The notes under the pieces were generated by a model. The model was not told where the DNA came from. It made no database searches and was given only the letters and a program-made list of their open reading frames with translations. Of a stretch of DNA of 64,000 nt, positions 17,856 through 18,296 are shown one piece after another. The position numbers and the translations under genes are program-made. The first letter of the stretch is position 1; each line of letters begins with the position of its first letter. The stretch is from Escherichia coli (GTDB taxonomy: Bacteria > Pseudomonadota > Gammaproteobacteria > Enterobacterales > Enterobacteriaceae), in the NCBI RefSeq assembly GCF_003334305.1, contig NZ_QOWS01000025.1; one strand, given 5' to 3'.

Positions 17856-18296
17856 GATACCCTTCAAACGAAATCTACCTTCACCCCGTAAAAGATGGGT
17901 TTGGCAGCACACTTGCCTTATATCTACTCATTTTTACTGCAACAGGTTGAAATCTCAGCACTGTCAGAAAGCGCTGATGACTAAACAGCCCTGGGCCGGG
18001 CGATGTAACCATCACACAGAATCCTGATAGCGAAATATGGCGTGACTCGATACTTCACTCCGCAATGCATTCCTTGATGAATTCGCAGGACCGTGATACA
18101 CGGGACAGGTCACTGAATGACGACAATGTCCTGGAAATCAGCGAACCGCGCATCTGAAGTACATTTGAGCGACTGTACCAGAACATGAATGAGGCGTTTG
18201 GATTAGGCGATTATTAGCAGGGCTAAGCATTTTACTATTATTATTTTCCGGTTGAGGGATATAGAGCTATCGACAACAACCGGAAAAAGTTTACGT

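Follow-up and report, generated by a model that had tools for sequence, protein, structure and literature searches.

The 441-bp junction that separates argW from cscB in Escherichia coli is probably the non-functional scar of a collapsed CP4-like island that once occupied the 3′ end of argW and was resident there before the csc genes. In the window, by which we mean the whole stretch of 64,000 nucleotides that was analyzed, positions 17922-18208 are a pseudogene relic of a gene for a DUF4942 (PF13708) protein, retaining codons ~38-151 of ~281, and ~65% of the junction is homologous to DUF4942 genes at the DNA, protein and profile levels. The comparisons described below establish what the relic is, its decay, its breakpoints, its single origin, its neutral drift and its strict linkage to csc. 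From the same material we infer that the relic and the 66 bp that precede it derive from a single island, which already occupied argW when csc arrived. The locus has the arrangement of the csc regulon, with cscB, cscK, cscA and cscR lying between argW and a 5′-truncated dsdX, followed by dsdA; an earlier reading of the window, made from the sequence only, had named all of these neighbors correctly. The features of the locus are as follows.

17781-17855, plus strand: argW, tRNA-Arg(CCU) (ARAGORN; Rfam tRNA, 63.4 bits)
17856-17921, plus strand: 66-bp stretch directly after argW, with a fixed-register likeness to the argW-integrase spacer of strain AVS0285
17922-18005, plus strand: DUF4942 relic, part 1, codons ~38-65, frame 1 of the segment (tblastn, 13/28 identities)
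17981-18208, plus strand: DUF4942 relic, part 2, codons 76-151, frame 3 (tblastn, 38-39/76 identities, E 1e-19 to 2e-20)
18203-18296, no strand assigned: csc-side non-coding stretch just beyond the cscB stop codon, retained beside cscB in genomes without the remainder of the junction
18297-19544, minus strand: cscB, intact 415-aa ORF
19616-20530, minus strand: cscK, intact (ORF list, translation, and RefSeq annotation of identical or near-identical loci)
20747-22180, plus strand: cscA, intact (same three sources)
22188-23183, minus strand: cscR, intact (same three sources)
23184-23426, no strand assigned: right non-coding end of csc, the region upstream of cscR, 243 bp
23427-23644, plus strand: 3′ remnant of dsdX, from nucleotide ~1118-1121 of 1338, about the last 73 codons (alignment to K-12 dsdX)
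23662-24990: dsdA, after the dsdX remnant

The junction contains neither an integrase nor an attachment repeat

The junction, 17856-18296, is the exact gap between the end of argW and the stop codon of cscB, which starts at 18297. The sequence-only reading had described this gap as devoid of an integrase, of a duplicated argW 3′ end and of any open reading frame of at least 60 aa, and each of these observations was borne out. The longest frame in the ORF list that overlaps the junction has 44 aa, and none of at least 60 aa lies between argW and cscB. Two integrases from argW sites, K-12 IntS and the integrase of AVS0285, were used as tblastn queries; they found no homology in the junction (best E 0.81), and none at E≤1e-3 in the cscR-dsdX spacer or in the 64-kb window. 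No second copy of the 23-nt or 15-nt argW 3′ ends occurs in the window with up to three mismatches allowed, and the best ungapped match to the argW 3′ end in 17856-24000, 15 of 23 positions, is equal to that of shuffled sequence. A direct repeat of the argW 3′ end, which the same reading had placed as a possibility near the csc/dsdX junction (~23410), was found neither there nor elsewhere in 17856-24000. Of the hallmarks of a tRNA-associated island, the window therefore has neither an adjacent tyrosine integrase nor an attR direct repeat. The further suggestion that the gap might hold decayed att or integrase remnants was right in so far as remnants of a mobile element are there, in the form of the DUF4942 relic and the 66-bp stretch; none of them is an att site or an integrase.

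The relic of a DUF4942 gene

Sensitive blastn against 5426 complete E. coli genomes aligned bases 67-345 of the junction, at 62-77% identity, to genes annotated as ‘DUF4942 domain-containing protein’ elsewhere on the chromosomes. When two intact DUF4942 proteins of 281 and 280 aa were used as tblastn queries, the homology resolved into two collinear pieces, parts 1 and 2 in the list above, and part 1 has 74% blastn identity to the DUF4942 region of strain 3908 (NZ_CM128561.1 locus, 6001-6088). The blastn alignment of the relic DNA is ~55 nt shorter than the intact gene, and a frameshifting deletion of ~55 nt accounts for the change of frame between the two parts. Part 1 is interrupted by an in-frame TAA at 17982-17984 that is kept in six diverged E. 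coli lineages, all of those examined, and part 2 by an in-frame TGA at 18155-18157 that is specific to the lineage of the window. Translated 17981-18208 matches PF13708 with E 2e-9 over model positions 5-62 of 190, an intact DUF4942 gene giving E 1e-68 over positions 1-189, and homology to DUF4942 ends near 18202. With one frameshifting deletion and two in-frame stops there is no full-length frame of ~280 aa, and the sequence is a pseudogene fragment: 38% of the gene remains, at ~50% amino-acid identity, and it is inactivated.

Compared with intact DUF4942 genes the relic has a dN/dS of 0.4-0.5, with 21/20/26 differences at the three codon positions, whereas intact genes compared with each other over the same codons have a dN/dS of 0.09 and differences of 4/2/15. 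Judged from its sequence, the relic is of old date and in decay. When 1.84 billion representative proteins were searched exhaustively with phmmer, no intact protein exceeded ~53-55% identity, and a word-based protein search for the source returned only short ORFs called on the same relic. There is no NCBIfam model for the DUF4942 family. Where a genome has a junction 100% identical to that of the window, PGAP marks 18065-18154 as a DUF4942 pseudogene; the fragment is thus already annotated in RefSeq, and its detection is real but ordinary.

The 66 bp next to argW

When the sequences that follow argW are read in fixed register from the tRNA end, 35 of the 66 positions at 17856-17921 match the argW-integrase sequence of AVS0285 (53% identity; binomial p ~1.6e-5), including a block identical at 10 of 10 positions, GAAATCTACC. 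Blastn with a word size of 7 did not report this likeness on its own, and we treat the similarity as weak, supportive of a common source and not conclusive. The 66 bp are unrelated to the K-12 sequence after argW or pawZ and were found in none of the csc-negative E. coli, their matches being confined to the set of junction-bearing genomes. They probably represent what is left of an extinct integrative island at its argW-proximal (attL-side) end. At 17903-17917, 48 bp after argW, the stretch also has a weak hairpin of 5 bp followed by a T-rich tail; the count of terminator-like sites in the junction is that of shuffled sequence.

The edges of the csc block

Two genomes that have lost part of the junction locate the left edge of csc. 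ETEC L7_E1373 keeps 18218-18296 beside cscB, the rest of the junction being gone, and Escherichia sp. MOD1-EC7003 keeps ~18209-18279, with a deletion of ~120 bp; the csc-adjacent DNA that both retain puts the left boundary at ~18203-18218. On the right, csc gives way to dsdX homology at 23426/23427. Megablast coverage of the cscR-dsdX′ query in csc-negative genomes starts at query position 428, and the PGAP note on the dsdX remnant reads ‘missing N-terminus’. There are no repeats or IS ends at either boundary. Among the loci compared, 23184-23426 had a blastn match only in the csc-positive locus of ETEC L7_E1373; the stretch contains no att copy and has no homologue in the csc-negative loci compared. 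A mechanical ORF at 22188-23381 (397 aa, TTG start) that crosses it is an over-extended cscR. The native K-12 flank, dsdC and the 5′ part of dsdX are all missing from the window.

The csc genes themselves are not uniformly intact among genomes with this junction. Strain OXA-181 (NZ_CM150779.1, locus 7442-8689), despite a junction 100% identical to that of the window, has a cscB that contains an internal stop and carries a pseudogene annotation, and inactivation of cscB has been reported for CC119 (PMC10132054); it appears to recur. Elsewhere in the window, the place of yfdF (352 aa, 14483-15541, between fadL and mlaA) is taken in several lineages by a different ‘hypothetical protein’ of 399-426 aa, and in AVS0285, clone D i14 and MCJCHV-1 the gene is missing, fadL and mlaA being adjacent.

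Distribution and single origin

Of the 5426 complete E. coli genomes, 2645 carry the junction, in every case as chromosomal sequence, and in 2624 the match spans its full length; 2646 genomes of this set have the 3′ end of cscB, and 2659 have the cscR-dsdX′ junction. Every one of the 2631 genomes that have the point of fusion between the 66 bp and the relic has the two contiguous, and no less-collapsed intermediate was found in the 5426 genomes. Six diverged lineages have the same breakpoints and the same TAA; what separates them is point changes and deletions of 2, 6 and 18 bp. Breakpoints and a stop codon that are identical across lineages indicate that the scar formed once, before the csc haplotype diversified, and this comparison of lineages demonstrates its single origin.

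Beyond E. coli, a conserved 21-mer of the junction matched one other representative among 100,044 species representatives, the cryptic Escherichia MOD1-EC7003, where the surroundings at argW are the same and the junction has undergone an internal deletion and an insertion of the IS66 family. In this genome (NZ_PTRE01000131.1) the junction has ~87-95% identity to that of the window and an ISCro1-like (IS66-family) end lies at about window position 18280, where the contig stops, with csc beyond view. Phage and plasmid collections yielded only records of argW prophages with host flank and chromosomes filed as plasmids. Four records of 43-47 kb named ‘Escherichia phage’ (ON470608.1, ON470622.1, ON470589.1 and ON470594.1) contain the junction and part of cscB, two of the four also have tRNA-Arg, and in some the relic ORF bears the annotation ‘A-kinase anchor protein 5’. 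They look like argW prophages that were delimited together with host flank, or aberrant excision products.

argW as an attachment site today

The 3′ end of argW is the attB core for present-day prophages and islands. In 1471 junction-bearing genomes argW is contiguous with the junction, as in the window; in the remaining ~44% the full tRNA and the junction match at separate places, and directly before the junction is a copy of 15 to 23 nt of the argW 3′ end. O157:H7, for example, has a 22-nt copy of the 23-nt argW 3′ end, with one G missing, beside the junction at the right end of a P22-like prophage. Since prophages sit between argW and the junction in ~44% of these genomes, the junction is the host-side flank of attB, beyond attR, and the window is an unoccupied argW attB. 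The integrase-free look of argW in the window is explained in this way, as that of an empty attB whose host-side flank would be the remnant of an older island.

Two other loci illustrate what can follow argW. In ETEC L7_E1373 (NZ_LR882990.1, locus 6796-9079) the order after argW is an N-terminal fragment of a CPS-53-type intS, then ISEc46, which consists of IS200/IS605 tnpA and tnpB, then only the last 79 bp of the junction, and then cscB. We considered this locus as an integrase-bearing ancestral state and rejected it, because its left part is CPS-53-like, which points to a later prophage integration and an IS-associated deletion that removed the relic. In the csc-negative clone D i14 (NC_017652.1, locus 9076-18075) there is no integrase beside argW, and the tRNA gene is directly followed by a gene of the OmpH family and by upaE, a phase-variable autotransporter gene of 7.9 kb; the argW flank thus has a third occupant, unrelated to the other two.

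A proposed origin of the scar

How might a fragment from the middle of a DUF4942 gene have come to lie between a tRNA gene and cscB? In the sequence of events that we favor, a CP4-like island with a P4-type integrase next to the tRNA, and a backbone running from DUF932 to DUF4942 at its far end, would have been oriented at argW like the island of AVS0285. A point ~60 bp past argW would then have been joined to about codon 35 of the terminal DUF4942, with loss of the integrase and of all cargo. DUF4942 codon ~150 would likewise have been joined to the sequence that adjoins the cscB stop codon, the left end of a 5.2-kb csc block whose right end would have come to abut dsdX at nucleotide ~1118. 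Because csc joins at DUF4942 on one side and at dsdX on the other, the right end of the island, attR, the native argW flank, dsdC and most of dsdX are gone. The collapse and the joining of csc would be two deletion/replacement events, in either order. Counting against a resident island are the lack of a surviving integrase fragment or attR and of an intact DUF4942 gene close enough to name the source; with no integrase or attR left, the island is inferred from one gene relic and the weak similarity of the 66 bp.

The sequence-only reading had hoped that the segment would show how the csc islet was acquired. The scar answers half of this, pointing to a CP4-like island that was once at argW beside csc; the route by which csc arrived cannot be read from the scar alone. 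It is conceivable, and on balance doubtful, that the scar also records the vehicle of csc, a CP4-like island at argW to which the genes were attached on entering E. coli or which captured them. One illegitimate join in the terminal DUF4942 and another in dsdX would then have produced the csc-positive, dsd-negative haplotype of about half of E. coli, and, if this were true, the well-known mutual exclusion of sucrose use and D-serine use would trace to one island-mediated event.

Neutral drift and alternative explanations

Between the window and four other lineages the junction has diverged by 4.0-7.8%, and pS in the adjacent cscB and yfdC is 0.03-0.17. At ≥99% identity to the window the junction is found in 1137 genomes, versus 2208 for cscB, and there are lineage-specific deletions within the junction of 2, 6, 18 and ~120 bp. 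The junction therefore diverges at about the synonymous rate of its neighbors, and these sequence comparisons demonstrate neutral drift. Rfam matched only the tRNA, folding z-scores of -0.66 and -1.46 did not go beyond shuffles, and promoter- and terminator-like sites were no more frequent than in shuffles. A hairpin with an 11-bp stem (arms 18244-18254 and 18277-18287) lies just past the cscB stop codon and appears in both minimum free energy folds; no U-tract follows it on either strand, and in LH50-c, the sole lineage changed in both arms, the changes are not compensatory. By Rfam, folding and terminator-like sites, the junction gives no sign of a structured ncRNA or an intrinsic terminator.

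These results bear on the idea that the junction holds a functional element, whether a small protein from the relic, an sRNA, an argW terminator or a 3′ regulatory hairpin of cscB. PGAP does call short ‘DUF4942 domain-containing’ ORFs in some lineages, the stable 11-bp hairpin does adjoin the cscB stop codon, and there is the weak terminator-like hairpin 48 bp past argW. However, the relic ORF varies between lineages in its length (30 aa in the window versus 60 aa in O157:H7) and its interruptions, divergence is near the synonymous rate, no Rfam family is matched, fold scores and promoter and terminator counts are at the level of shuffles, the arm changes of LH50-c leave the hairpin uncompensated, and deletions of 18 to ~120 bp as well as IS insertions are tolerated; a functional element is very improbable. 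We give still less credence, indeed almost none, to the view, left standing by the sequence-only reading, that the junction has no connection with mobile elements and is simply the ordinary intergenic sequence that the yfdC-argW-dsd region had ancestrally. The lack of an integrase, an att repeat and a long ORF would suit ancestral DNA, as would its service as host flank for present-day prophages, but it is largely homologous to DUF4942, it is missing from all csc-negative genomes, and in those genomes other sequence follows argW or attR and runs into dsdC. No end-to-end alignment with csc-negative intergenic DNA was found, the junction being carried by 2645 genomes and cscB by 2646.

It is rather unlikely, and still deserves to be weighed against a resident island, that the relic, and perhaps the 66 bp, were imported together with csc as one block from the CP4-like island context of a donor lineage. 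Such a block would have replaced the argW-dsdC-dsdX′ stretch, with argW and dsdX/dsdA acting as homology arms. The near-perfect co-occurrence of junction and cscB (2645 versus 2646 genomes) is what co-import predicts, and it is in keeping with a single junction architecture, with the finding that no csc-negative genome has any part of the junction, with the complete loss of the native flank and dsdC, and with the presence of the junction in a representative of a cryptic Escherichia species. Yet no donor was found, the sole match in the 100,044 species representatives being an Escherichia with the same argW context, and few organisms other than E. coli are reported to have csc of the E. coli type (PMC11251922). 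The position and orientation of the relic also fit an island that was resident at argW. Import would in any case alter only where the scar formed, and not its nature. Our preferred reading, of a CP4-like island that collapsed after residence at argW, is the one we carry into the comparisons below.

The importance of the junction is small beyond tidy annotation. It fixes the left boundary of the csc block, and it is a stable marker of the single-origin csc-positive, dsd-negative haplotype in roughly half of complete E. coli genomes, which could help with typing of the argW/csc/dsd locus and with the correct delimiting of argW prophages.

Comparison with known systems

In two intact islands, that of strain 3908 beside tRNA-Ile and that of EcPF14 beside yicL, DUF4942 is the last island gene before the core genes, and the order of the genes before it is the same in both: DUF932, antirestriction, JAB/RadC, DUF987, YeeU, CbtA, DUF5983 and DUF957. 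The living island at argW in AVS0285 has a tyrosine (P4-type) integrase 175 bp after argW, with Arm-DNA-bind_3, Phage_int_M and Phage_integrase domains, and is ~75 kb long, with cargo and IS elements after the integrase. Its right end consists of a YeeP-like GTPase, Ag43, DUF932, antirestriction, JAB, DUF987 and a YeeU pseudogene, and is followed by an attR copy (ATTCCTGCAGGGGACACCA), a K-12-type native flank and dsdC. The backbone genes of AVS0285 are co-oriented with argW, as is the relic of the window; its right end does not have the genes from CbtA to DUF4942, and an argW island that ends in DUF4942 was not directly seen. In strain 3908 (NZ_CM128561.1, locus 6735-6909) the DUF4942 end of the island is ~100 bp from the 3′ end of a convergent tRNA-Ile, so the tRNA-side end of an island is not always its integrase end, which is a caveat for orientation deduced from one relic.

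Set against CP4-like islands, the window shares homology of its relic to their terminal DUF4942 and a likeness of its first 66 bp to the left end of AVS0285. Unlike them, it has no integrase, no attR and no other backbone genes; of the backbone genes looked for in the window the DUF4942 relic alone is left, in the expected orientation, and the junction is a scar and not an island. The K-12 element pawZ/CPS-53 (KpLE1) uses the same tRNA site and has a partial copy of the tRNA on its far side, and the attR that precedes the junction in O157:H7 is of the same kind as K-12 pawZ. K-12 keeps intS, the attR copy (pawZ), the native flank and dsdC, whereas the window has none of these, and CPS-53 is unrelated to the island family with DUF4942. 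We also tried yeeW of K-12 CP4-44 as an analogue of DUF4942 and dropped it, tblastn having found none.

That cscBKAR lies beside argW, replacing dsdC and the 5′ part of dsdX, and that argW is a hotspot of recombination and integration, has been described (PMC11251922, PMC4366372, PMC3032704), with Jahreis et al. 2002 and Moritz & Welch 2006 as the sources cited there for the argW-dsdCXA region and the csc regulon. The same three papers, which do not describe the content of the argW-cscB spacer, include the report that E. coli-type csc is rare outside E. coli (PMC11251922), a paper that also reports csc loci from Citrobacter farmeri, C. telavivensis and Enterobacter hormaechei. In its arrangement the window is a standard example of the published argW/csc/dsd locus.
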